Positions 1,886 through 35,306 of a DNA stretch of 36,983 nucleotides are shown here, one piece after another. Every line of letters begins with the position of its first letter. Position 1 is the stretch's first letter. Made by a program: the position numbers and the translations under genes. The stretch is from a virus. Its lineage: Duplodnaviria; Heunggongvirae; Uroviricota; Caudoviricetes. The notes beneath the pieces were generated by a model that saw only the letters and a program-made list of their open reading frames with translations, ran no database searches and was not told the DNA's origin. The DNA is taken from IMG/VR virus record IMGVR_UViG_3300028920_001939. One strand, written 5' to 3'.

Positions 1886-1980
1886 TAAAGAGGCGATAGA
1901 TAATGGTGAGTGATTTTTTTATCCCATCCATTCCATATCACTATGGAAATCTCCTAGCGCCATTATCCGCCAAATCTTTA
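1886..1980 (+). ncRNA. BHB-flanked structured RNA unit 1
   Basis: TAAAGA/TCTTTA outer helix; GGCG/CGCC 4-bp central helix; 3-nt bulges ATA (1896-1898) and AAA (1972-1974); 10-bp inner stem GATAATGGTG/CGCCATTATC. Confidence 0.8.
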
Positions 1981-2124
1981 AAAGGCGATAGAGTAACAGA
2001 ATATAATAGTATTCTGCGTGCATCAGGAAGTATGACCGTGCTATTACGGTGGTTTCATCTCGACTTTTTTTGCTTTCTCAGTAAAACTACAGATGAAACG
2101 AATCTCCGTTACTCCGCTAAATTT
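1981..2124 (+). ncRNA. BHB-flanked structured RNA unit 2 (multibranched interior)
   Basis: AAA/TTT outer helix; GGCG/CGCT central helix; bulges ATA (1988-1990) and AAA (2119-2121); inner GAGTAAC/GTTACTC; internal stems CAGAATA/TATTCTG, ACCGTG/TACGGT, GTTTCATCT/AGATGAAAC. Confidence 0.78.
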
Positions 2125-2127
2125 AAT

Positions 2128-2211
2128 AAGAGTGGTAAGATAGAGGGAATAAAGGTGTAATTATGTACCCACATCACATCCTCAATAAATTCTCTCTATC
2201 CCACAAATCTT
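2128..2211 (+). ncRNA. BHB-flanked structured RNA unit 3
   Basis: AAGA/TCTT outer helix; GTGG/CCAC central helix; bulges TAA (2136-2138) and AAA (2205-2207); 12-bp inner stem GATAGAGGGAAT/ATTCTCTCTATC. Confidence 0.8.
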
Positions 2212-2627: not shown

Positions 2628-4844
2628 ATGGAAGTACCACTAATAGCTAAACCAATTGTGAAATACAACAGAGAATACTTCGAGATATGGCATAACAAGA
2701 GTAAGAAGCATATTGAATCACCTATCAAACCCTATTTCTACAGTTACAAACCAGATTTGTTATCAGGCGATATCGAGATAAAACAGATACAAGCAAAGGC
2801 ACTATCAAACATGAAAGAGAGAACCTTTTACAAGTATGAATTTAATTTAAGAAGTGAATTAGTTAAATCAATAGAAGATGGTGTTACTTTTGAAGATAAT
2901 ATACCATTTGTTATCAGAAACAGAATTGATAATCCAGAGATATTCAGAAGATACAGAAATTCAGAAGAATTAACTTTCTTGTTTCTTGATATAGAACAGT
3001 ATTGTCCACCGGGTGAACCCTTTCCTTCTTATGAAGATAGATTGTTATCAATAGCGTGGTGCACCAACGATAGAATAATCAAATGTGCTTATCTTAAAGA
3101 AGATAATACAACTGATAAGAAACTTCTGAACTTATTCTTGAATAAATACAAAGAGATAGACCCAGATGTTATCGTGGTATTCAATAAGTCATATGATATA
3201 CCAACGATTATCAGAAGATGTGAAAGAAATGGATTAGATATCAAGAGATTATCAAGAGATTCAAGTAAACCTGAGCTTGACAAACACGGCAATATCAATA
3301 TTGGTGGCGTTATTGTATATGATGTTTATGATTCTGTTAGAGATGATCAATCACTTACAGGCAACGTGCCTAATCGTGGATTAAAAGCAGTATCAGATTA
3401 CTTTGGTTTTAATAGTGAAAGAGAACCTTTGACTAATAAAGAGATACAGATGTATATAGGTAAGAAAGAATTAACAGATTACAACAAAGATGATATAAGA
3501 AGAACACTACACTTGTTTGATATTTATTGGGATAACATAGAATTCAACGCAAACGATTTGGGTATACCACTTAACGAAGCATTAGATTTAAACATATCAA
3601 ATCTCGGTCTTATTGTTATAGGCGACGCTTATAGAGAATACAATATCATAGCAGATGGTAAGAATGAAGATAGATTTCCAGAGATATTCCAGAGAGGGAA
3701 AAGTCAATTTGAATCTAATTATGAAGGTGCTTTAGTAGATATAGCAAGAACTGGATTGTTTGAACCTGTGCTTAAAGCAGATTACGGTAGTATGTATCCT
3801 ACAATTATGGCTGAATTTAACTTATCACCAGATACGACAACACTAATAGGATTTGAAGAATATGGTAAGTTTGATATAATCGAAGAAGATAATTGGTTTA
3901 TTTACAGAATACCAGATAAAGAATTGAATAAAACTATGGTGATTCAAGTTTTGAAGAATGTAAAAGGGTTTTCTGCAGAGTTAGTAAAAAAGTTCTTAAA
4001 AGAACGTTCTGAATACAAAAAACTATGGAAAACAACGAACAAAAAGCATTACCGTGTAAAAAGTGATAACCGAAAGGTTAAAGCGAATGGTGGAGTTTAT
4101 GGCAATCAGGGTTTTGGAAAGCATCCATTTGGATTTGTTCCAATTGCAATCGCAACTACCGGGCTGGGACGTGAATGTGCAACACTATTGATTGATATTT
4201 TAGATAAATTATACCCAGATTCAGTTATAGAGTGGGACACAGATGGAGTTTACTTCTCGGCGAAAGATGTTGATAAAGATAAGATACAACAGTTGTTTAT
4301 CAATGAGTTAGAAAAGAGATTTAAGAAGAAGTTAGAATTAACAATAGATATAGATGATTACGATAAGGGTTACTTTTACAAAGCGAAAAACTATGTTTTA
4401 CAGAAAGGTGATAACATAATATATCACGGCGTGGCTATGAAAGGTAGAAACAAAGATTTATTAAAGAAAAATCTTATACGGGATTTAGCGGTTTCTAAAC
4501 TATCAGGTAGTCCAACGCAACCGATAATAGATAAATATATGGAATTAGATTTCCCACTTAAATTCTTTGCTATGAATGTAACTTTGAGGCGACATATCAA
4601 TCAGTATAAAAATCCTGAATCAACACTATCATCAAGATTAGCGTTACGTGCTGAGAAACTCTTGAAGAAGAAACCCGAAATAGGTTCGATATATCACTAT
4701 GTTAAAACAAATCAAGATTATGAATTACTTGAGTTGGCGAATGTGAAAGATATAGATAAAGAATACTATAGAAATGAGATTAAAACAATCGCTGATATAT
4801 TTCAAGTAGTATTGAAAGAACCGAAAATAGATAAATGGTTATAG
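2628..4844 (+). CDS. polB: Family B DNA polymerase with 3'-5' exonuclease domain
   Basis: ExoI LDIEQ, ExoII FNKSYD, ExoIII YNKDD; Pol A DYGSMYPTIM, Pol B KVKANGGVYG, Pol C DTDG; C-terminal IDKWL. Confidence 0.95.
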   Translation: MEVPLIAKPIVKYNREYFEIWHNKSKKHIESPIKPYFYSYKPDLLSGDIEIKQIQAKALSNMKERTFYKYEFNLRSELVKSIEDGVTFEDNIPFVIRNRIDNPEIFRRYRNSEELTFLFLDIEQYCPPGEPFPSYEDRLLSIAWCTNDRIIKCAYLKEDNTTDKKLLNLFLNKYKEIDPDVIVVFNKSYDIPTIIRRCERNGLDIKRLSRDSSKPELDKHGNINIGGVIVYDVYDSVRDDQSLTGNVPNRGLKAVSDYFGFNSEREPLTNKEIQMYIGKKELTDYNKDDIRRTLHLFDIYWDNIEFNANDLGIPLNEALDLNISNLGLIVIGDAYREYNIIADGKNEDRFPEIFQRGKSQFESNYEGALVDIARTGLFEPVLKADYGSMYPTIMAEFNLSPDTTTLIGFEEYGKFDIIEEDNWFIYRIPDKELNKTMVIQVLKNVKGFSAELVKKFLKERSEYKKLWKTTNKKHYRVKSDNRKVKANGGVYGNQGFGKHPFGFVPIAIATTGLGRECATLLIDILDKLYPDSVIEWDTDGVYFSAKDVDKDKIQQLFINELEKRFKKKLELTIDIDDYDKGYFYKAKNYVLQKGDNIIYHGVAMKGRNKDLLKKNLIRDLAVSKLSGSPTQPIIDKYMELDFPLKFFAMNVTLRRHINQYKNPESTLSSRLALRAEKLLKKKPEIGSIYHYVKTNQDYELLELANVKDIDKEYYRNEIKTIADIFQVVLKEPKIDKWL

Positions 4845-4857
4845 TGGAGGAAAGAAA

Positions 4858-5178
4858 ATGAAATTTGGTAGAAGAAAAAGTAGTATGAAAACTATGACGC
4901 AAGAAGATATAGACAAAGGACTTGAAGAATTGTTTAAGGGGCAGAAAAAACCAGAAGAAAAATCAGTTGTTCAACAGAGAGAAAATTTGCCAAGAGCAGG
5001 AGCCCCAAAACTATCATTCGAGCCAGAACCTGAACCAGAGCCAGAAGAAGAAGAAACGTATTGGACTGGTGAAGATTGGGAGAAATGGGCTTATTCTATG
5101 TATAAGAACTATCCCGATTCGAGAAACTTCTTGCCAGAGTGGTTTTTGAAAGCAATACAAGATGCACTAAATCAATAA
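4858..5178 (+). CDS. Hypothetical protein with acidic EP/E low-complexity linker
   Basis: GGAGG SD; EPEPEPEPEEEE tract; fills the gap between polB and the AAA+ gene. Confidence 0.7.
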   Translation: MKFGRRKSSMKTMTQEDIDKGLEELFKGQKKPEEKSVVQQRENLPRAGAPKLSFEPEPEPEPEEEETYWTGEDWEKWAYSMYKNYPDSRNFLPEWFLKAIQDALNQ

Positions 5179-5183
5179 GTTGG

Positions 5184-6167
5184 GTGGGTAATATCTTAAA
5201 CAACTTTGTAGGTTACACCAGCAATATAAGAGATTTAGAGAATTGGTTATCAGATTTCTTTGATAACAAAAACAGAGAAAACAACTATGCGATAGTAGTT
5301 GGTAAATCAGGTAACGGTAAAACATATCTTGTAGAGAAATTAGCAAACAGATTTAAATCTCAATTATTTAGAATAACACCAGATGATATACAAGATAACA
5401 ACGATATCAATAATGTGATTAAATCTCTTAATCTGTATAACCCACTTGAGGGAAGTAGGCGAAAGATTATTCTTATTGATGATATAGATGAGTTTTATTA
5501 TGTCTATAGGAATAGACTAATAAAAGATTTGCCAAGATTATCACTTAACCCTGTTATCTTTACGAGTAAATCGTTTAAATTCCCACCAGAGTTTAAGAAT
5601 TATTCTTTAAAAGTTGGTAAGAAGAAAACTTGGTATGTTTTAATTGATCCATTTGAATATAATGTTTATCAATTTCTAAAAACATTACCTTCTGATTATT
5701 CTGATAAACAACTGAAAGATATAGCATACAAATCTCCTTCTGTAAGAAGCGCAATATTATCTCTGAATGGACCCATTAATGATATAATAGAAACAGATGT
5801 AACAAGATGGGATAACATTAGAAACATTAAAGAGAGAAAATTCAACGAACCGCTTACGAGAAGGAACAAAAAATATATATTTAACAGTATCAGAGGTTGT
5901 AATAATGGTACATTATATGATTTGAGTGCTGTTGTAGATAAGTTTCTTGATTTTAACGAGAGAATCGTGTGCAAACACGAAACACATGATGGTGTATCTG
6001 AAGGGATTAACTGTTGGTTTATCAATAATATGAAAGAACCGGTCACAAAAGTTAAGTGGTATTATACTTATAGTAAGAAAAAAGGTAATAATAAAAGTAA
6101 GAAGGTAATAGAGAAGAAACCGAAAAAGAAGATTGTTAAAAAGACCCAGATGGACAAGTGGTTATAA
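5184..6167 (+). CDS. Clamp-loader (RFC large subunit-like) AAA+ protein
   Basis: Walker A GKSGNGKT, Walker B ILIDDID, LENWL before Walker A, Lys-rich tail ending in PIP-like TQMDKWL; GTG 5184 preferred over the track start 5139. Confidence 0.8.
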   Translation: MGNILNNFVGYTSNIRDLENWLSDFFDNKNRENNYAIVVGKSGNGKTYLVEKLANRFKSQLFRITPDDIQDNNDINNVIKSLNLYNPLEGSRRKIILIDDIDEFYYVYRNRLIKDLPRLSLNPVIFTSKSFKFPPEFKNYSLKVGKKKTWYVLIDPFEYNVYQFLKTLPSDYSDKQLKDIAYKSPSVRSAILSLNGPINDIIETDVTRWDNIRNIKERKFNEPLTRRNKKYIFNSIRGCNNGTLYDLSAVVDKFLDFNERIVCKHETHDGVSEGINCWFINNMKEPVTKVKWYYTYSKKKGNNKSKKVIEKKPKKKIVKKTQMDKWL

Positions 6168-6469
6168 TGAAAAGAGATAAAAGTTATAGTAGTTTGGTGC
6201 TGTTGGTTTTCGTAAGGAATATAGATAAAGAGAAATGTGATTCTATCAAACAACTGATAGATATATCCGATAAGTTAGGTGAAAAAATAGGTTATAAAAC
6301 AGATATAAGTTATGATACGAAACTATCAATAATAAATGATATGATAGATAGGGGTATCTTAATAAAAGGTAAAAGAACTGAAACACAACCTATATCTGTA
6401 AAACCGGAGGTAAGAGAATATATTGTTGAGGCATTATCAAAAGTGAGAATGATGAAAGATGGAAGTTGA
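6167..6469 (+). CDS. Putative winged-helix DNA-binding protein
   Basis: TAATG coupling to the RFC-like gene; LSIINDMIDRGILIK helix plus wing-like segment. Confidence 0.55.
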   Translation: MKRDKSYSSLVLLVFVRNIDKEKCDSIKQLIDISDKLGEKIGYKTDISYDTKLSIINDMIDRGILIKGKRTETQPISVKPEVREYIVEALSKVRMMKDGS

Positions 6470-6761
6470 TTCTGATAAGAGAAAGTATAAGATATGGTTC
6501 GATGAAATCTGTTTAGGGAAGCAACAAATAAGAAAAGTTGGTAATAGCTTCGTTATAACAATTCCAAAATCAATGCTAGAACGAAATAAATTGAAAAAAG
6601 GTGATAATGTAATTCCCATATTGCTTATGCGAAAAAGAAAGTTAGTTGGGGAAGCAGATGAAGGTTTTGAATGGTTAAAAGTTTCTAAGCAAGACAGAAT
6701 TAGGTTCAAAAGGTATTTGAAAGATATGGAAGATTTAGAGCATGCGGCGCAAAAAAATTAG
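6459..6761 (+). CDS. AbrB/MazE/SpoVT family DNA-binding protein
   Basis: IRKVGNSFVITIPKSMLERNKLKKGDNV signature. Confidence 0.85.
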   Translation: MEVDSDKRKYKIWFDEICLGKQQIRKVGNSFVITIPKSMLERNKLKKGDNVIPILLMRKRKLVGEADEGFEWLKVSKQDRIRFKRYLKDMEDLEHAAQKN

Positions 6762-11785: not shown

Positions 11786-13624
11786 ATGAATGCTTTGATA
11801 TCAGTAGTAATACCCACGATACCAGAGAGAAAGAAATATTTAGATAACGCCATCAATTCAGTAAAAAATCAAACATACAAAAATATTGAATTGATAATCG
11901 TAACAGAAGGCAAATCAGCAGGAGCATCACGAAACATAGGTATCAAAAAAGCAAGAGGCAACTATATCGCGTTCCTCGACGACGATGATACTTGGCACCC
12001 AGAGAAATTAGAGAAGCAACTTAAACTTGCCGAAAAATATCCCAAATGCCCACTTATAACCTGTTACTCTCACGACAAACGATTCGGTCAAGATAAAATC
12101 AACAAACCACCCGAAGTTATCACTCAACGCAAAATACTAAACTCTTTTAACTATTCATCAACCTCAACATATCTAATAAACAGATACTATCTCAATCTTA
12201 TAGGTTTATTTGATGAATCATTACCTTCTGCTCAAGAATACGAACTTGCTATACGATTATCTGAAAAATACAATCCCAGATGTGTTCCCGAAGTACTCGT
12301 AACCCAAAATCCAACAGAAGGGCAAATATCAGAAAACTGGACAAAGAAAGCAAAAGGTATCAAACAAGTTTACAAAAAGCACAAAGAACTATTTTTGAAA
12401 GCTTCTAAGTTCAACAGAATAAAACTATACGGTTTATTTCTTGTTTTTTATGCAGGTCACATATTCGGCAACAAAATATACAAAATCATATCACCTATGA
12501 AACAACGATATGAAGATACAAAAGATATCATAATCTCTCGTGGCACCATCCAACACTTCGACAACCGCCTCGCACAAATATTCAAAGAATACGGCTACAA
12601 AACTTACAGCATATCAATATACAAACCCCAAGATGAATTCTTATCTAATTTTGAAAAATCCTACTATCTACTTGACAAATCTCTCAAATCAGAACAATCA
12701 TCAAAATCAGGCAAACTAAAAACAATCTTACGAATCGTAAACAGAATACCCAGATTATACAAAGCTAAAAAGCAACTAAAAGGTTCAACAGTAATAGGCG
12801 TATCTGAACCCAACACATTCATATCATATATCTTTCATCTATTCAGAAAATCAACCAAAATTTATTTCCCCTACGATATCACTTACTTCCGCTACGAAAA
12901 CTACAACAAAAACTCCTATCTCGAAAGATTCTGTGAAAAACGAAACTTCAACAAATGCAATGGCATAATCCACAAAGGTCCCGAAGATGAACTATCTTTA
13001 CTACCCTTCAACATAACAGATAAACCTTCAATACAATTCTTACCCTACTCTTGTATCAAATCACTACTGCCTATACAAGACAACTATTTAACAAAACTAA
13101 CCCTTGTTTACGTCGGCGGCGTTTACCCCAGTTACTCATTCCCAAACTTCCCCTCAACCGCTAAAATCTTCTCAAAGATAACTGAACTAAAAAATATCAA
13201 CCTACACATATATCCCTTGAATTATGATCAAATAAAAAACAGATTAGATTACTCAACACTCAACATTCATGAACCACTTTACAGCGACAATCTAATCAAA
13301 GAGATATCGAAATATGATTACGGCATATACATCTTCAATTTACACAAATCAAAACACAAGAAGCTCCTATCAACCGCTTTCGGCAACAAAGTATCAACAT
13401 ATCTCGAAGCAGGTCTCCCAGTGATAGTAAATAATGATTTGTCGTTTGTATCAAAGATAATACAAGATAACAAACTCGGCATTGTCATAAACGATATCAA
13501 TGATATAGAAAACATAAAAAAAGATTTTGATAGATATGAATTCGATAGAGCACGAAAGGAATTCACATTAGAAAAACATTTTCCAAGAATGATAGAATTT
13601 TTAAAAGAGGTTAAAAGCAAATGA
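11786..13624 (+). CDS. Two-domain glycosyltransferase: GT2 (GT-A) fused to a GT-B-like domain
   Basis: ISVVIPT, GASRNIGIKKARGNYIAFLDDDDTW (DxD), EYEL; C-terminal VYVGG and GNKVSTYLEAGLPVIV. Confidence 0.88.
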   Translation: MNALISVVIPTIPERKKYLDNAINSVKNQTYKNIELIIVTEGKSAGASRNIGIKKARGNYIAFLDDDDTWHPEKLEKQLKLAEKYPKCPLITCYSHDKRFGQDKINKPPEVITQRKILNSFNYSSTSTYLINRYYLNLIGLFDESLPSAQEYELAIRLSEKYNPRCVPEVLVTQNPTEGQISENWTKKAKGIKQVYKKHKELFLKASKFNRIKLYGLFLVFYAGHIFGNKIYKIISPMKQRYEDTKDIIISRGTIQHFDNRLAQIFKEYGYKTYSISIYKPQDEFLSNFEKSYYLLDKSLKSEQSSKSGKLKTILRIVNRIPRLYKAKKQLKGSTVIGVSEPNTFISYIFHLFRKSTKIYFPYDITYFRYENYNKNSYLERFCEKRNFNKCNGIIHKGPEDELSLLPFNITDKPSIQFLPYSCIKSLLPIQDNYLTKLTLVYVGGVYPSYSFPNFPSTAKIFSKITELKNINLHIYPLNYDQIKNRLDYSTLNIHEPLYSDNLIKEISKYDYGIYIFNLHKSKHKKLLSTAFGNKVSTYLEAGLPVIVNNDLSFVSKIIQDNKLGIVINDINDIENIKKDFDRYEFDRARKEFTLEKHFPRMIEFLKEVKSK

Positions 13625-30280: not shown

Positions 30281-30594
30281 GAATGAAGAAGATGGGGATA
30301 AGATTCAGATTAGGTCAATTGAAAACCTGGGAAAACAGATTATCATCTTATGTAGCAATAATAAACTTTGCTATGATATTTTATCTGTATATATTAGAAA
30401 CACCTTTCGGTTTAGAATGGTATCAATGGCTCGCTCTTATATCTGTCGCTATAGTTCTAATCATATTCATAGATATCAAATTTGTATTTCCCGGCGTTTT
30501 AGATTATACATTCAAGAAAAATCCCGAATGGAAACGAATGATGCGCAACCAGAAAAAGATAATGGAGAAATTAGGATTGGAGTATGAGAAATAA
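30277..30594 (+). CDS. Hypothetical 2-TM membrane protein
   Basis: ATGA overlap; two TMs; followed by TAATG coupling. Confidence 0.7.
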   Translation: MRMKKMGIRFRLGQLKTWENRLSSYVAIINFAMIFYLYILETPFGLEWYQWLALISVAIVLIIFIDIKFVFPGVLDYTFKKNPEWKRMMRNQKKIMEKLGLEYEK

Positions 30595-30758
30595 TGGCGC
30601 ATAATAGTAGATGTGCAAACGCTAACCCAGATTCAAAATGCCGTTGTAGTTGTGGAGGAAAACTACATGGTATAAACTTTCACAAACCCGAAACACTTGT
30701 AACAGTTGATAAATACATAGATATGGATAATACCAAAAAGTTTATAAAGTCAAAATAG
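30594..30758 (+). CDS. Small Cys/His-rich protein (54 aa)
   Basis: Manual translation; CANANPDSKCRCSCGGKLHG metal-binding pattern. Confidence 0.65.
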   Translation: MAHNSRCANANPDSKCRCSCGGKLHGINFHKPETLVTVDKYIDMDNTKKFIKSK

Positions 30759-30780
30759 TTACTACCTATGGTGATATGGA

Positions 30781-31020
30781 ATGAAAATCCCGCAAAATGA
30801 AATAAAATCTTACGCAAATGCCGTGTCGAATGATATTTTTGGTAAGAATCTATCTAAACTGATTAAACCAGAATCAACAACTTTGAGATTATCACTAATT
30901 GTAAGATTGAATTGTGATGAGATAGATTTAACTACATATAGACAAGTTGATGATTACGTTAAGAATATACTCTTTCCAGATCCAAGAAAGCCAACAGTAG
31001 TAACTAAAAAGGTGGACTAA
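30781..31020 (+). CDS. Hypothetical protein
   Basis: ORF track; GGTGA SD. Confidence 0.6.
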   Translation: MKIPQNEIKSYANAVSNDIFGKNLSKLIKPESTTLRLSLIVRLNCDEIDLTTYRQVDDYVKNILFPDPRKPTVVTKKVD

Positions 31021-31023
31021 AAG

Positions 31024-31173
31024 ATGACAAGATTAACAAGTGTTTACGGATATTGGTATGATAAGAAAGAAAAACTTTTAGCTAAATATCCAATAGAGTT
31101 AATACAAAATCAGTTGTTTCTAATAAATAAATTTTTAGAGGATTTAGATTATATAAGAGAAAAGGAGGAATAA
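31024..31173 (+). CDS. Hypothetical microprotein (49 aa)
   Basis: Manual translation; AGGTGG SD; tight spacing. Confidence 0.5.
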   Translation: MTRLTSVYGYWYDKKEKLLAKYPIELIQNQLFLINKFLEDLDYIREKEE

Positions 31174-31174
31174 A

Positions 31175-31285
31175 ATGACACCTATATTTTATATCGGTCT
31201 CATTACTATAGTAGTTGCCTTTATTGCTGCAACTGTTATAAGAAAGATAATGAGATACAGATACAGAAAAGCAAAGGAGCAATAA
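31175..31285 (+). CDS. Single-TM microprotein (36 aa)
   Basis: GGAGG SD; hydrophobic N-half, basic tail. Confidence 0.55.
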   Translation: MTPIFYIGLITIVVAFIAATVIRKIMRYRYRKAKEQ

Positions 31286-31289
31286 TAGT

Positions 31290-31409
31290 ATGAAGAAAGT
31301 TTGGAAGTGTGGATGTATCTATGATAATGGCAAATGGGATTTCTGTGCGTGGCATGAAGAAATCATTTGTGATATTTTAGATGAAGATGAGGGGGAAAGT
31401 TCTTTATGA
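31290..31409 (+). CDS. Cys/His microprotein (39 aa)
   Basis: GGAG SD; CGC...CAWH motif; ATGA overlap downstream. Confidence 0.5.
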   Translation: MKKVWKCGCIYDNGKWDFCAWHEEIICDILDEDEGESSL

Positions 31410-31558
31410 AAGATATTGTTAGCCAAAGAAAAGAAACTATGAGCATAGATCTTGAGTTAGTTACAATAGAAGAAATGTTAAAGTTACTCAATCAATATCA
31501 AGGTTATGTTGATAGTGAAAGCAGGACGCTTGAGTTGTATGTAAAAAGGAGTAAATAA
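31406..31558 (+). CDS. Hypothetical microprotein (50 aa)
   Basis: ATGA overlap; manual translation. Confidence 0.5.
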   Translation: MKDIVSQRKETMSIDLELVTIEEMLKLLNQYQGYVDSESRTLELYVKRSK

Positions 31559-31630
31559 AATGAAAGAAGAAAATCTTGATTTAGTTAATAAAGAATATTA
31601 TTGGTTATGTTTCAATAAGAGGGATAATTG

Positions 31631-31789
31631 ATGAAAAGATACTGTGAAATATGTGGGAAGCTAAAAGAATCAACCGAAGAACACGGGAATGATTTTTACG
31701 TTATAACAGTATGTAAAGATTGTTTTAATAGAAAACACACGTTTGTCAATAAAAAGAATAAAACTTTAGATGAATGGGTTGATGATTAA
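31631..31789 (+). CDS. Zn-finger microprotein with PIP-like C-terminus (52 aa)
   Basis: CEIC...CKDC; ends NKTLDEWVDD; TGATG overlap. Confidence 0.6.
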   Translation: MKRYCEICGKLKESTEEHGNDFYVITVCKDCFNRKHTFVNKKNKTLDEWVDD

Positions 31790-31791
31790 AA

Positions 31792-31995
31792 ATGATAATC
31801 GCTGGATTAGTTGATATGGAAGAGATTGATGTGATAGATGAGATTATCAAAGTATCTTCAATCGGTTCTAGAATTAGAGATTTAAGTTCAGTTGAAGCGC
31901 AGAAAACGAAGATAGAGAATAAGTTGTTACAAGAACAAATAATAAATAATTTAATTGAGGAGTATCTGGATGATGTATGTTATCAAGAGGTGTAG
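31792..31995 (+). CDS. Hypothetical protein
   Basis: ORF track; fits packing. Confidence 0.55.
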   Translation: MIIAGLVDMEEIDVIDEIIKVSSIGSRIRDLSSVEAQKTKIENKLLQEQIINNLIEEYLDDVCYQEV

Positions 31996-32119
31996 AAAGT
32001 GTGGCACGCACATACACATACATAAACACAGCGGTTACTATACTATACGAAATGTTTGTGATCACGTGCCACGATTAGATAAAGCATTCAATAAAGATAT
32101 AAGAAGGTATTTGAGATGA
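31970..32119 (+). CDS. Cys/His-rich microprotein (49 aa)
   Basis: GAGGAG SD; CRKC...HIH...CDH. Confidence 0.5.
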   Translation: MMYVIKRCRKCGTHIHIHKHSGYYTIRNVCDHVPRLDKAFNKDIRRYLR

Positions 32120-32218
32120 ATAAGATTATCATTGAACCGTTTATAGATTTCGATTTAGAAGATGATGCAGAAATGATTGATAAAGTTAAAGAAAAAGGTA
32201 ATAAAGAAATATGGTGAT

Positions 32219-32350
32219 ATGAAAATGGATAAAGATGTTGAATATACATTCAAAGAAGAAATGCGTAATGCACTATTGTTTGTTTTTTTAATGGGATTAC
32301 CATTTTTATTAATCATTGTTTTTAAATGGTTTTTCCTTGTAGTTGGGTGA
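32219..32350 (+). CDS. Single-TM microprotein (43 aa)
   Basis: GGTGA upstream; hydrophobic C-half. Confidence 0.45.
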   Translation: MKMDKDVEYTFKEEMRNALLFVFLMGLPFLLIIVFKWFFLVVG

Positions 32351-32351
32351 T

Positions 32352-32546
32352 ATGATGATGAGACAATGTCCGTTATGTAATGAATTATTATTTGATAATG
32401 ATTGGATAGACCATTTTAGATTAAGTAAAGAACCTAAACATAAAGAGATTTGGAATGATGTTATTACATTTGAAATTATGATTGATGATGTTACTGATTT
32501 AGAATTAATTAAGGTATTGAGAGAGAAATACCTTGTAAAAAGGTGA
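32352..32546 (+). CDS. C2H2-like Zn-finger protein
   Basis: CPLC...HF...H; GGTGA SD. Confidence 0.65.
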   Translation: MMMRQCPLCNELLFDNDWIDHFRLSKEPKHKEIWNDVITFEIMIDDVTDLELIKVLREKYLVKR

Positions 32547-32551
32547 TAAAA

Positions 32552-32674
32552 ATGAATTGCCCCAAATGTGGAAGCGATAGATACTATATGCAACGTAAGT
32601 TTACAAACATATGGTATCAATGTCCCGTTTGTGGTTATGATAGTAGGAATGAAACTGTTGATGTGGAGGAATAA
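32552..32674 (+). CDS. Zn-ribbon microprotein (40 aa)
   Basis: AGGTGA SD; CPKCGS...CPVCGY. Confidence 0.7.
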   Translation: MNCPKCGSDRYYMQRKFTNIWYQCPVCGYDSRNETVDVEE

Positions 32675-32693
32675 ATATGAAACATTGTAGTTG

Positions 32694-32838
32694 TAAATTA
32701 GAATGTAAGGTAAAACAGAAGGGATAAAATGGAAAAATGGAAGAGAAATAGAATATTATTTTTGATATTTTGTTTTATTATAGGTGCTTTAATTTCAAAT
32801 ATAGATAGGATAATATAAATTAGAATGTAAGGTAAAAC
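32694..32838 (+). repeat. Exact 23-bp direct repeat TAAATTAGAATGTAAGGTAAAAC (32694-32716, 32816-32838); near-copy at 33356-33376
   Basis: Read directly; third copy has one extra A. Confidence 0.9.
32729..32818 (+). CDS. Single-TM microprotein (29 aa) between the direct repeats
   Basis: Manual translation MEKWKRNRILFLIFCFIIGALISNIDRII. Confidence 0.45.
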   Translation: MEKWKRNRILFLIFCFIIGALISNIDRII

Positions 32839-32860
32839 TTTAAGGTTGTTAATATACCGC

Positions 32861-32876
32861 TAAGTATATATACTTA
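32861..32876. promoter_or_regulatory. Perfect 16-bp palindrome TAAGTATATATACTTA containing a TATA-like core
   Basis: Self-complementary; about 33 nt upstream of ATG 32909. Confidence 0.5.
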
Positions 32877-32908
32877 TGAGTGTATATAGTATATTGGTGA
32901 TAAAAAAA

Positions 32909-33007
32909 ATGAAAACATGTGAAATGTGTGGATTTAAAGAAAGAGATGTTAAACGAGTTAGAAAATTTGGACATCTTTGGTGGCTTTGTAAATCGTGTAG
33001 GGATTAA
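32909..33007 (+). CDS. Zn-finger microprotein (32 aa)
   Basis: GGTGA SD; CEMC...CKSC. Confidence 0.6.
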   Translation: MKTCEMCGFKERDVKRVRKFGHLWWLCKSCRD

Positions 33008-33009
33008 AT

Positions 33010-33138
33010 ATGAATCTATTGTGTAATCGTTGCAATCATAGTTGGTATAGTCGTACACCTAATAAACCGAAAGTTTGTCCTAGGTGTAAATCTCCTTATT
33101 GGAATAAGAAAAGAGTTCGTAAGGTAGGAATACAATGA
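33010..33138 (+). CDS. Zn-ribbon microprotein (42 aa)
   Basis: CNRCNHSW...PKVCPRCKSPYW. Confidence 0.7.
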   Translation: MNLLCNRCNHSWYSRTPNKPKVCPRCKSPYWNKKRVRKVGIQ

Positions 33139-33281
33139 AAAATGATATAGTGTTTAATGCTGTTGAAAGTCATCCTAAATCTTTTACAATGTATGTTGGT
33201 TTATTTCATCCAATTCTTTTTAGATTTTTACATTGGAGATTTGAAAAGTTAAATAAAAAAACAGAAAAAAGAATAAGGTAA
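33135..33281 (+). CDS. Hypothetical microprotein (48 aa)
   Basis: ATGA overlap; manual translation. Confidence 0.5.
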   Translation: MKNDIVFNAVESHPKSFTMYVGLFHPILFRFLHWRFEKLNKKTEKRIR

Positions 33282-33288
33282 AAGTGAA

Positions 33289-33356
33289 AGGTGGATAGAT
33301 GAAAAGGTGGAAGGTTAAAAATCCATGCACCCTCCTATCTTTTCATCCCACAAACT
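33289..33356 (+). ncRNA. BHB-flanked structured RNA unit 4
   Basis: AG/CT outer pairs; GTGG/CCAC central helix (33291-33294/33348-33351); bulges ATA (33295-33297) and AAA (33352-33354); 9-bp inner GATGAAAAG/CTTTTCATC extended by GTGGAAGG/CCTCCTAT with wobbles. Confidence 0.72.
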
Positions 33357-33407
33357 AAATTAAGAATGTAAGGTAATATATAAAGGAAAAAGGAGGTGAA
33401 AAAGAAA

Positions 33408-33575
33408 ATGACAATATATGATCCAAAAAAAGAAAAGATAGTTTATGAAGGTTCTTTAAGTCGTATGCCTAATAAAACTAAGGCATACTATACCAAAAAA
33501 GGATATAAGTTGAAATGTCGTGAGGTTAAACCTCGTTTTGGTAAAAAGGATTCTGTTGTAGTTATTAATAAGTAA
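33408..33575 (+). CDS. Basic hypothetical microprotein (55 aa)
   Basis: GGAGGTGA SD; manual translation. Confidence 0.6.
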   Translation: MTIYDPKKEKIVYEGSLSRMPNKTKAYYTKKGYKLKCREVKPRFGKKDSVVVINK

Positions 33576-33586
33576 GGTAAAATAGC

Positions 33587-33913
33587 ATGGAAAAAAAAGA
33601 AGTTGTAAAGTCAAAATGTGTTTCTTGTGGTAAGCCAACTCCTATGTGTATACCAATTACAGTATGCAGAAGTTGTAGAGGTAAAATTGAGAGATTTTTA
33701 AAGGCACAAGAAAATTATGAAAATACTCTCATGCTTTCAAGAGATGTTAAAAAGATTTCTGCTTTTGATAGTGGTAATGAAGATATTGATTATGCTCTTG
33801 ATATTATTGGTGATCAGGTTTTCACTATTGAAAAACAGTTGGAATGGATTAAAAATAATTTGGTTAATATTCAACAGATAACAAAATCTAAGGTAGGAGT
33901 TCAAGAGAAATGA
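33587..33913 (+). CDS. Zn-finger plus coiled-coil protein
   Basis: CVSC...CRSC; helical C-terminus. Confidence 0.7.
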   Translation: MEKKEVVKSKCVSCGKPTPMCIPITVCRSCRGKIERFLKAQENYENTLMLSRDVKKISAFDSGNEDIDYALDIIGDQVFTIEKQLEWIKNNLVNIQQITKSKVGVQEK

Positions 33914-34098
33914 CTTTGAAATATCAAGGTGGTTTAAAGACTTGTGAAAGATGTGGGCGATTAATGAAAAATAGAATTAATATAGGGGTTTACTGTGAAA
34001 ATTGTTTGAAAGAAAAGAGATTAGCTAAAAAAAGATTTATGGAAAGATTGAAGATTAGCAATCAAGAGGAGTCTGTATATAAGTTGGAACTAAGGTAA
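33910..34098 (+). CDS. Zn-finger protein
   Basis: CERC...CENC; ATGA overlap. Confidence 0.65.
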   Translation: MTLKYQGGLKTCERCGRLMKNRINIGVYCENCLKEKRLAKKRFMERLKISNQEESVYKLELR

Positions 34099-34209
34099 AA
34101 TTACAAGGTAAATAGATATGAAACCTGTAAGATATGATAGGTGGTCTATACCGAGAATATGTATAATATGAAATCAAAAACATTTAGGTTTGAATGAAAA
34201 TTAAAGGTA

Positions 34210-34341
34210 ATGATGATGAAAAGAATATTGTATTGGATTTCGTGTTACATATCACTTGCTTGGTCTATATCTTTGATACTGTTCGGATTATTTTTTAGTT
34301 TATTTGGAATTAAATTTAAAAAAAGAGGAGAGAAAATATGA
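34210..34341 (+). CDS. Single-TM microprotein (43 aa)
   Basis: Manual translation; ATGA overlap with next ORF. Confidence 0.5.
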   Translation: MMMKRILYWISCYISLAWSISLILFGLFFSLFGIKFKKRGEKI

Positions 34342-34439
34342 TAGAGGGATTTTTGTTTGGTTTCTTTATGGGTATGATAGCGATGATTATAATTGATATC
34401 TATAATCATTATCGTAAAGCATTCAAACAAGATAAATGA
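34338..34439 (+). CDS. Single-TM microprotein (33 aa)
   Basis: GAGGAG SD; hydrophobic N-half. Confidence 0.5.
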   Translation: MIEGFLFGFFMGMIAMIIIDIYNHYRKAFKQDK

Positions 34440-34448
34440 GTTGATGAT

Positions 34449-34658
34449 GTGAATATAAAACTATATGGATTGTCCATATGTAGTAGATGTAAAACAGCAC
34501 GATTAATGCTTGACAAGCGTAATATCAATTACAGATACGTTGATTTGAATCCATCTACTACTCCAAAGTATTTAATATCAAATTTACCAATTCTTGAAAT
34601 TGATGGGATAAAATACAAAGCAAGAGATGCTTTGATAAAAATAAAAGAATTGAAATGA
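34449..34658 (+). CDS. Glutaredoxin/NrdH-like redoxin
   Basis: IKLYG..CSRC (CxxC), YVDL, LPILEIDG cis-Pro region. Confidence 0.8.
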   Translation: MNIKLYGLSICSRCKTARLMLDKRNINYRYVDLNPSTTPKYLISNLPILEIDGIKYKARDALIKIKELK

Positions 34659-34667
34659 GGTGGTCAT

Positions 34668-34835
34668 ACGACACAAAAGATGTGTCAAGTATGCAGGAAG
34701 AGATACGATAAGTTTAGTATGTATGTTACGAAAAAAGGTTATACCTGTAGAGGTTGTTACGAGAAATTCAATTTGAATTCAACAACGAAATTTCATCTTT
34801 TGGCAAAAAAGTATGGAAATAGGCAAAAACTTTAA
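34668..34835 (+). CDS. Zn-finger microprotein; ACG start (or ATG 34680)
   Basis: GAGGTG SD 5 nt before in-frame ACG; CQVC...CRGC. Confidence 0.55.
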   Translation, partial: TTQKMCQVCRKRYDKFSMYVTKKGYTCRGCYEKFNLNSTTKFHLLAKKYGNRQKL

Positions 34836-34867
34836 AAAGGCATAAAATATTATACCGTTGATGAATT

Positions 34868-35158
34868 ATGAGCGAAAACGCAAAAAAAGAGGAAGCAAAA
34901 AAGTCAACTGTAACTGTTTCTGACTTTAAGAATCATATCAAAGATACTGATCTAAAATTAGTTCCTTTAAAAGGTACTAATGCAGTAAAGTATGACAGAA
35001 ACGTATGTTACGTTCGTAATGCAAATTACGGATTATCAGTTTGGGTTGCAGTTGGTAAAGAAGCTAACAAAACAAAAAGGATAGTATCAGAAGAACAACT
35101 ATCTACCTTTGTTGGCAATCTCAATAAATACGTTGAGAGTTTAAAGAAACAAAATTAA
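34868..35158 (+). CDS. Hypothetical protein
   Basis: ORF track; followed by a T-rich tract. Confidence 0.7.
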   Translation: MSENAKKEEAKKSTVTVSDFKNHIKDTDLKLVPLKGTNAVKYDRNVCYVRNANYGLSVWVAVGKEANKTKRIVSEEQLSTFVGNLNKYVESLKKQN

Positions 35159-35164
35159 AGGTGA

Positions 35165-35200
35165 AAATTACTATTTTCATCTTTCTACCTTATTTTTTGA
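35165..35200 (+). terminator. Possible archaeal-type oligo-T terminator
   Basis: TATTTTCATCTTTCTACCTTATTTTTTG just after stop 35158. Confidence 0.35.
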
Positions 35201-35210
35201 ATCCATTGTA

Positions 35211-35226
35211 GAAAATTATTTATATA
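35211..35226 (+). promoter_or_regulatory. Possible BRE/TATA promoter for the downstream large gene
   Basis: GAAAATTA followed by TTTATATA (35219-35226), matching the archaeal TATA consensus. Confidence 0.35.
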
Positions 35227-35306
35227 CCTTTTCGTACTTATTATATGGTAAGGCAAGGTGAATAAGTTGACTCTTTTTAAAAAACTATTTTTAGCTGGTG
35301 GTATTT

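Follow-up and report, generated by a model that had tools for sequence, protein, structure and literature searches.

The stretch of viral DNA analyzed here (IMG/VR record IMGVR_UViG_3300028920_001939; 36,983 nt, referred to throughout as the window) carries a tandem array of three hairpins at positions 1886–2211, between the genes for a serine recombinase (resolvase) and a family B DNA polymerase (PolB). Each hairpin is closed by a motif of the bulge-helix-bulge (BHB) type. With a fourth, solitary unit in the window and further units in other contigs, they form a conserved, strand-specific BHB family located at gene junctions. The array probably represents three substrates of EndA, the tRNA-splicing endonuclease of archaea, that lie within the transcript of the resolvase-to-PolB operon and belong to a clade-wide family of intercistronic hairpins. 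Sequence and fold also lead us to predict, with reasonable confidence, that the operon RNA is spliced and that four circles are released.

The Array Units Share a Strand-Specific BHB Geometry

A BHB motif is defined by a 4-bp helix separating two 3-nt bulges (PMC5829648). This arrangement is found in all four window units, which lie on the + strand, and in their relatives: two 3-nt bulges are located on opposite strands, each 3' of a central helix of exactly 4 bp, the sole exception being unit 2 of contig L005. Unit 1 (1886–1980) has the full hBHBh' form, with a 6-bp outer helix (1886–1891/1975–1980), a central helix of GGCG (1892–1895) and CGCC (1968–1971), bulges ATA (1896–1898) and AAA (1972–1974), and a 10-bp inner stem (1899–1908/1958–1967) capped by a G-poor loop of 49 nt with a U7 run (1914–1920). 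Unit 3 (2128–2211) is likewise a full hBHBh'. Its outer helix is 4 bp (2128–2131/2208–2211), GTGG (2132–2135) pairs with CCAC (2201–2204), the bulges are TAA (2136–2138) and AAA (2205–2207), and a 12-bp inner stem (2139–2150/2189–2200) carries a 38-nt loop. Between them, unit 2 (1981–2124) pairs GGCG (1984–1987) with CGCT (2115–2118) and has bulges ATA (1988–1990) and AAA (2119–2121); its outer helix is AAA/TTT (1981–1983/2122–2124), and its 7-bp inner helix, P1 (1991–1997/2108–2114), encloses a junction RNA. The solitary unit 4 (33289–33356) sits between two small genes and combines a 2-bp outer helix, a central helix of GTGG (33291–33294) and CCAC (33348–33351), bulges ATA and AAA, and a 13-bp inner stem. 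The inner helix spans 7–13 bp over all units, and the outer helix measures 6, 3, 4, and 2 bp in window units 1–4. Being weak in units 2 and 4 and missing in contig L024, the outer helix there gives the relaxed HBh' form. For the three array units, the coordinates and pairings are as described in an earlier note on this DNA, which also held the geometry to be canonical on the + strand only; the reverse complement indeed presents the mirror geometry.

In a tRNA with a 37/38 intron, the 3' splice site leaves nucleotide 38 beside the anticodon stem. The bulge orientation in the window units, derived from this tRNA numbering, is the same as that of the 37/38 intron.

Thermodynamic folding recovers the same structures. 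In ViennaRNA, the minimum free energy (MFE) fold of 1870–2230 consists of exactly three hairpins with BHB bases, and the centroid retains all three. The fold has an energy of −91.6 kcal/mol, compared with −70.7 ± 5.1 kcal/mol for shuffled sequences (z = −4.09; 0 of 100 shuffles as stable). The MFE structure of unit 4 is identical to its centroid (z = −3.3), and solitary units keep the BHB in the MFE, L015 excepted.

The window was scanned for a geometry comprising an outer helix, a 4-bp helix, a 3-nt bulge, and an inner helix, with both strands read alike. Under loose settings, a 37-kb Markov shuffle yields ∼16 matches, and one weak BHB match is therefore no evidence. A strict scan demanded G-C both as the first inner pair and as the pair closing the central helix. 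Its long-stem matches were exactly four on the + strand (the three array units and 33291/33348) and none on the − strand, and shuffles produced 0–4 minimal matches. When one inner mismatch was allowed, the + strand gave the same four and the − strand four unrelated matches, for which the chance level is ∼2. Matches to the BHB family signature numbered 25 on the + strand versus 4, all unrelated, on the − strand.

The Units Covary among PolB-Syntenic Relatives

Relatives were found through PolB synteny; there are ∼120 PolB relatives in metagenomes, and the nearest contigs keep the resolvase-gap-PolB order. Units 1 and 2 occupy this gap in L001, L002, and L014 (PolB identity 87%) and in L003, L004, and L015 (86%), the latter group having in addition a solitary unit 7.7 kb downstream. 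The gap of L005–L007 (82%) holds units 1, 2, and 3. In L019 (62%), one unit fills the 92-nt resolvase-PolB gap, with the same geometry and wholly different stem and outer-helix sequences. L044 (60%) has two solitary units (L044_A and L044_B) at other junctions, and L024, an unrelated low-GC IMG/VR contig, has one unit among small genes. In all, the distinct simple units number 12, and the complex unit 2 is represented by 4 copies.

Nine simple units were aligned. Standard pairs fill 91.4% of cells, versus 38–48% when the 3' partners are slid by 1–3 columns; 12 of the 17 pairs are changed on both sides, and pairing is complete (100%) in the central and inner helices. The covariation score was reached by none of 500 shuffles. 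For the structure of unit 2, 97.5% of cells are paired versus ∼40% when slid, and 12 pairs are doubly changed. In three relatives, its central helix reads GGCG/CGCT, GGTG/CACC, and AACG/CGTT, and variants of its outer helix are AAA/TTT, ATGAGA/TCTCAT, and GAGA/TCTC. The internal covariation claimed in the earlier note from the window units is confirmed by real compensatory changes among relatives, and the check for conserved BHB geometry that it had proposed finds that geometry kept, with such changes, in the PolB-syntenic contigs. G-U pairs are frequent; the first central-helix pair is GC in five of the nine simple units and GU in four. On the other strand, G-U pairs would be A-C mismatches, which argues for + strand RNA and against a DNA cruciform or protein site.

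No relatives were found when IMG/VR was searched with PolB and the resolvase, and an 18-mer of unit 2 had no match in IMG/VR and chance bacterial matches only in GTDB genomes. A metagenome pattern scan returned two true relatives and one chance match (L016), and four BHB-signature patterns run on IMG/VR gave nearly all chance matches, one true hairpin (L024), and one doubtful one (L041). The latter, at 4586–4648 of an IMG/VR contig labelled GVMAG (31% GC) and binned as a giant virus, reads GTGG-ATA-G...C-CCAC-AAA; its inner stem is 6 bp long and contains one bulged A. This hairpin may belong distantly to the family or be due to chance. L003 has, between units 1 and 2 (4536–4615), ∼80 nt of extra A-rich sequence that forms an ordinary hairpin without BHB geometry and may be a degraded unit or unrelated.

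Unit 2 Encloses a Conserved Junction RNA

Unit 2 is a junction RNA without an Rfam family. Within it, on the + strand, a 9-bp long-range helix joins TAATAGTAT (2004–2012) to GTGCTATTA (2038–2046), and 6 of its 9 pairs are changed on both sides among four relatives. A 12-bp arm, P4, is formed by GGTGGTTTCATCT (2048–2060) and AGATGAAACGAATC (2091–2104), also on the + strand, and its loop contains a U7 run (2065–2071). The core CATCAGGAAGTATGACCGT (2021–2039) is the same in the window and L001, with two differences in L003 and three in L005, and stretches of 18–19 nt, such as TGAAACGAATCTCCGTTA (18 nt), are invariant in all four relatives. The P4 loop sequence TGCTTTCT (2071–2078) is complementary to AGGAAGTA (2025–2032). 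This complementarity of 7–8 bp, AGGAAGUA/UGCUUUCU, is kept in four of four relatives with changes that are one-sided only; it is a candidate tertiary pairing, an idea prompted by a chance alignment.

The loops of the simple units are 24–49 nt long, G-poor (0–7 G), and contain more C than the + strand overall (14% C). Words such as CUCCU and CAUCC, each scarce on the + strand with 9 occurrences in 37 kb, recur in these loops. The loops of window unit 3 (win_u3) and L044_A have AUCACAUC(U)CCUCA in common despite their different stems. Two of the seven T7 runs on the window + strand lie inside units 1 and 2 (the runs at 1914–1920 and 2065–2071), and U6–7 runs also occur in L019, L005_u3, and L044_B. 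The U runs may be archaeal termination signals, sites for Sm-like proteins, or chance.

The Units Lie at Intercistronic Junctions

The window is 32% G+C and all of its genes are on the + strand. The resolvase gene (1167–1811, +) lies upstream of the array, and its stop codon abuts unit 1 in relatives: in L001 and L019, it abuts or sits within the outer helix of unit 1 and of the L019 unit, respectively. Downstream, two small membrane-protein open reading frames (ORFs; 2226–2402 and 2324–2626, both +) separate the array from the PolB gene (2628–4844, +), the syntenic anchor for the relatives; these ORFs are probably downstream cistrons of the array transcript. Solitary units are placed in the same manner. 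In L044_A, the outer helix directly adjoins the upstream TAA, and the hairpin is followed at once by the ATG of the next gene. In L044_B, the outer helix includes the upstream TAG, and an AAA/RFC-like gene has its true ATG 16 nt past the 3' bulge. Window unit 4 and the L015 solitary unit are each preceded by a stop codon and followed by the next ribosome-binding site.

No promoter upstream of unit 1 is conserved in the relatives, and in several cases the abutting stop codons leave a dedicated promoter no space. The simplest view is that the units are parts of polycistronic mRNAs. The earlier note had proposed an independent polycistronic small-RNA cassette. This is probably not the case, because in relatives the resolvase stop codon marks the start of unit 1 and solitary units lie between a stop codon and the next start codon; the units behave as intercistronic introns of operon mRNAs.

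Proposed Splicing and Its Circular Products

BHB motifs are cut by EndA, and a ligase joins exons and intron ends alike (PMC7714728, PMC12558985). In the array, the + strand RNA folds into hairpins with a 3-4-3 BHB base, and EndA would cut after the second nucleotide of each bulge, as is general for BHB motifs. An RtcB-type ligase would then join the flanking mRNA, with the operon mRNA losing 76 + 131 + 69 nt, and would also close each excised piece into a circle. The predicted circles, all + strand, are 1898–1973 (76 nt), 1990–2120 (131 nt), 2138–2206 (69 nt), and, from unit 4, 33297–33353 (57 nt). With the joined ends separated by a slash, the predicted back-splice junctions are CGCCAA/AGATAAT for unit 1, CGCTAA/AGAGTAAC for unit 2, and CCACAA/AGATAGAG for unit 3, and the predicted exon-exon junctions are GGCGAT/ATCTTT, GGCGAT/ATTTAA, and GTGGTA/ATCTTC. 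The excised lengths for the array and the back-splice junctions had been predicted before, and the arithmetic is correct.

The simple circles would be dumbbells, with a stem of 10–13 bp, a 7-nt ligation loop at one end, and a G-poor loop of 24–49 nt, often with oligo-U, at the other. The 131-nt circle would be a junction RNA of compact form whose long-range pairings are conserved. We think that the circles are the selected products, stable viral RNAs that bind protein or host RNA. This is the least supported step, and we prefer it because of unit 2 and the loop motif common to win_u3 and L044_A. A broader proposal, which we offer tentatively and with more doubt than conviction, is that a clade of large archaeal viruses, possibly infecting Asgard archaea, encodes circular RNAs as operon introns matured by the host tRNA-splicing machinery; unit 2 would be a new RNA class with covarying loop contacts, and the dumbbell loops would sequester a host factor (an Sm-like protein or a purine-rich RNA).

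Several observations weigh against processing by EndA or against a function for its products. The outer helix of unit 2 is made of three A-U pairs only, L024 has no outer helix, unit 2 of L005 has a single central-helix mismatch, and the MFE of the L015 solitary unit favors a competing register. The covariation comes from few, related sequences. No unit was found upstream of PolB in L017/L018 and L020 (PolB identity 63–64%), and the array is therefore dispensable. The loops have yielded no partner. The earlier note suggested that they could act as anti-Shine-Dalgarno-like guides or sponges, and this idea was not supported: their duplex energy with the Shine-Dalgarno consensus AGGAGGUGAUC was equaled by 146 of 500 composition-matched shuffles. 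A search for antisense targets within the element (the window and the relatives' loci) found none that beat shuffles, the best match, 18 bp from the unit 1 loop to 30766–30783 at a start codon, being equaled by 4 of 40. Finally, the archaeal host and its EndA type are inferred. The host clue is one PolB relative binned as Heimdallarchaeaceae, the bacterial-type relatives returned by a DegT search being uninformative.

Comparison with Known BHB-Processed RNAs

Haloferax volcanii HVO_1309 has a 46-nt BHB intron in its 5' untranslated region (UTR), which is cut by EndA in vitro and has been found as a circle (Schwarz et al., 2020, PMC7714728). In Crenarchaeota, the intron of the cbf5 pre-mRNA is likewise a BHB-bounded insert in an mRNA (PMC2738675). 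The viral units resemble both in being BHB-bounded inserts in mRNA, not in tRNA or rRNA, and they share with the HVO_1309 intron a small size and a place in a noncoding part of the message. HVO_1309 and cbf5 are single cellular cases, whereas here a virus-like element carries a tandem array and units at several intercistronic junctions. The viral units further differ in that their presence varies between relatives, the 131-nt unit is a complex structured RNA, and their processing is predicted from sequence.

Introns excised from archaeal tRNAs can form stable, functional circles, an example being the C/D-box sRNA in the tRNA-Trp intron. The viral units have the 3-4-3 geometry, the predicted cut after the second bulge nucleotide, and the ligation in common with tRNA introns. 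Unlike those introns, they have no surrounding tRNA (ARAGORN), their ligated exons would be mRNA spacer, and no C/D box or K-turn was recognized. BHB motifs also occur in the leader-trailer pairing of pre-16S and pre-23S rRNA, and permuted or circular RNAs include the signal recognition particle RNA of Thermoproteus and permuted tRNAs. As with these, a whole RNA is predicted to be excised at a BHB formed by its flanks and circularized; unlike these, the excised window RNAs match no known family and show no sign of re-linearization or permutation. The pRNA of phi29 is a virus-encoded structured RNA (∼120–170 nt) in which loop-loop complementarity covaries among related viruses. It is cited as an analogy only, with no homology claimed; it is not BHB-processed and belongs to a different virus type.

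A search of the literature on BHB motifs, archaeal viruses, the splicing endonuclease, and Asgard archaea found no virus or plasmid with such elements. The BHB cases found were those of tRNA, rRNA, cbf5, and HVO_1309, in agreement with the earlier note, which knew of no described viral example. What is new here is a known processing signal in a viral, intercistronic, and arrayed setting, together with one orphan structured RNA. If the proposed processing is true, archaeal viruses put EndA and RtcB to two uses, splicing polycistronic mRNAs and producing circular RNAs that resist exonucleases. This would be a prokaryotic counterpart to the use of host splicing by eukaryotic viruses, and the first case of a prokaryotic virus whose mRNAs undergo protein-catalyzed splicing by the host. 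Should the host be an Asgard archaeon, the units would bear on the origin and spread of non-tRNA introns in the closest lineage to eukaryotes. At junctions, the presence/absence polymorphism would offer a natural system for studying BHB intron gain, and the units themselves would be compact, natural cassettes for circular RNA expression.

Alternative Explanations

The strongest alternative, although we consider it unlikely, is that the units are selfish or neutral BHB mini-introns at gene junctions, tolerated because host splicing removes them, with the circles as waste. Presence and absence at orthologous junctions fit this explanation: L044_B places a 75-nt unit before the ATG of the AAA/RFC-like gene, where the orthologous window junction is ∼5 nt, unit 3 is found in the window and L005 only, and L017 and L020 have no units. 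So do the common core GTGG-ATA-GAT...ATC-CCAC-AAA of units at unrelated loci and the failure to find a target or function for the loops. However, neither a target-site duplication nor a donor was seen, and a 2026 preprint on Asgard tRNA introns found gains not to be linked to mobile elements. The interior of unit 2 is more elaborate and more conserved than splicing requires, and a loop motif is common to units with different stems. Both of these features are easier to reconcile with circles that are themselves selected.

Cis-regulatory introns, in which splicing or oligo-U termination would control the downstream cistron, for example by freeing a held Shine-Dalgarno sequence next to the start, appear rather improbable. 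L044_A fits this, with AGGAGG held in its outer and central helices and, after excision, GGAGG 9 nt from the AUG. This arrangement is seen in one unit only, and both the L019 PolB gene and the gene following unit 4 have their own Shine-Dalgarno sequence downstream of the hairpin. In the array, removal of all three units still leaves ATG 2226 without a well-spaced Shine-Dalgarno sequence. Expression of HVO_1309 seems to require that its 5' UTR be spliced (PMC7714728), and the T7 runs inside units 1 and 2 would suit termination, but control of this kind leaves the structure of unit 2 unexplained.

We give very little credence to a known RNA or gene in disguise, be it a permuted or divergent 5S RNA, a tRNA that is permuted or rich in introns, a C/D-box RNA, or the protein of ORF 1903–2160. 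Rfam returned nothing for the window at gathering score and no consistent family at E ≤ 10 in five sub-regions. ARAGORN found 0 tRNA genes in the window, and there was no Rfam tRNA match. The best score among Rfam C/D families was 19 bits, against a gathering score of 70, and lay outside the units; C/D boxes were not seen by eye. These searches thus support the absence of tRNA, C/D-box, and Rfam identity. Unit 2 has the length (∼125 nt) and three-arm topology of a 5S RNA, and its C(A/C)GGAAGU word resembles 5S loop C. The 5S reading was dropped because RF00001 had no match at E ≤ 10 in 139–143-nt searches of two unit 2 copies, which likewise matched no other Rfam family at that threshold, and because the word is better explained by internal pairing, GGAAGU more likely being paired with the P4 loop. 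The 85-aa ORF 1903–2160 was rejected as protein coding because its frame is not kept in relatives, which supports the noncoding status of the region. The frame shifts between units in L001, in L003 the ORF is split into pieces of 26–44 aa, and the look-alike in L005 is partial, the common peptide being the translation of the conserved unit 2 core. In L003 and L005, the internal AUG that comes after AGGAAGU has been replaced.

A DNA-level element, either a res site of the adjacent resolvase or an inverted-repeat replication origin, is suggested by the position between serine recombinase and DNA polymerase genes and by the inverted repeats typical of such sites, but it is scarcely credible given that the G-U pairs and exact 3-nt bulges are strand-specific, that the arms vary by compensatory substitution and are not kept as protein-binding sequence, and that identical units occur far from any resolvase (at 33.3 kb in the window, in L044, and in L024).

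Neighboring Genes

Elsewhere, the window encodes the AAA/RFC-like protein and UDG and contains a glycan-synthesis island. A Pfam scan of 30 larger window ORFs (about half of those of at least 90 aa) gave no EndA, RtcB, or other RNA-processing enzyme. ORF callers probably misplace the start of the AAA/RFC-like gene. In L044 (12225–12360), the called start reads through the 75-nt hairpin and the real ATG is at 12355; in the window (5176–5190), the start is likely a GTG ∼5 nt after the upstream TAA. The membrane protein encoded at 2324–2626 is conserved (L003 4770–5000), and its C terminus, LILQ(E/Q)RYARGEI..EYLERM.RL, is SHOCT-like by eye. It is absent in L001, where PolB directly follows unit 2. 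Around unit 4, the region 30594–35300 contains ∼20 very small ORFs (40–108 aa) and has a GC skew that is very high, at 0.3–0.46. Many of these ORFs are joined by TAAGGTA-like junctions of stop codon and ribosome site, and unit 4 lies within one.

Downstream of PolB, a MazE/AbrB-type (SpoVT-AbrB) protein (6459–6761) is conserved in the window, L001, and L003, and no obvious toxin partner was noticed for it. Upstream of the resolvase, a large N6/N4 DNA methyltransferase is encoded in L001 (91–2103), L003 (389–2260), L005 (1779–3635), and L019 (219–2060); at this position, the window instead encodes an S24-like peptidase fragment together with small membrane proteins.

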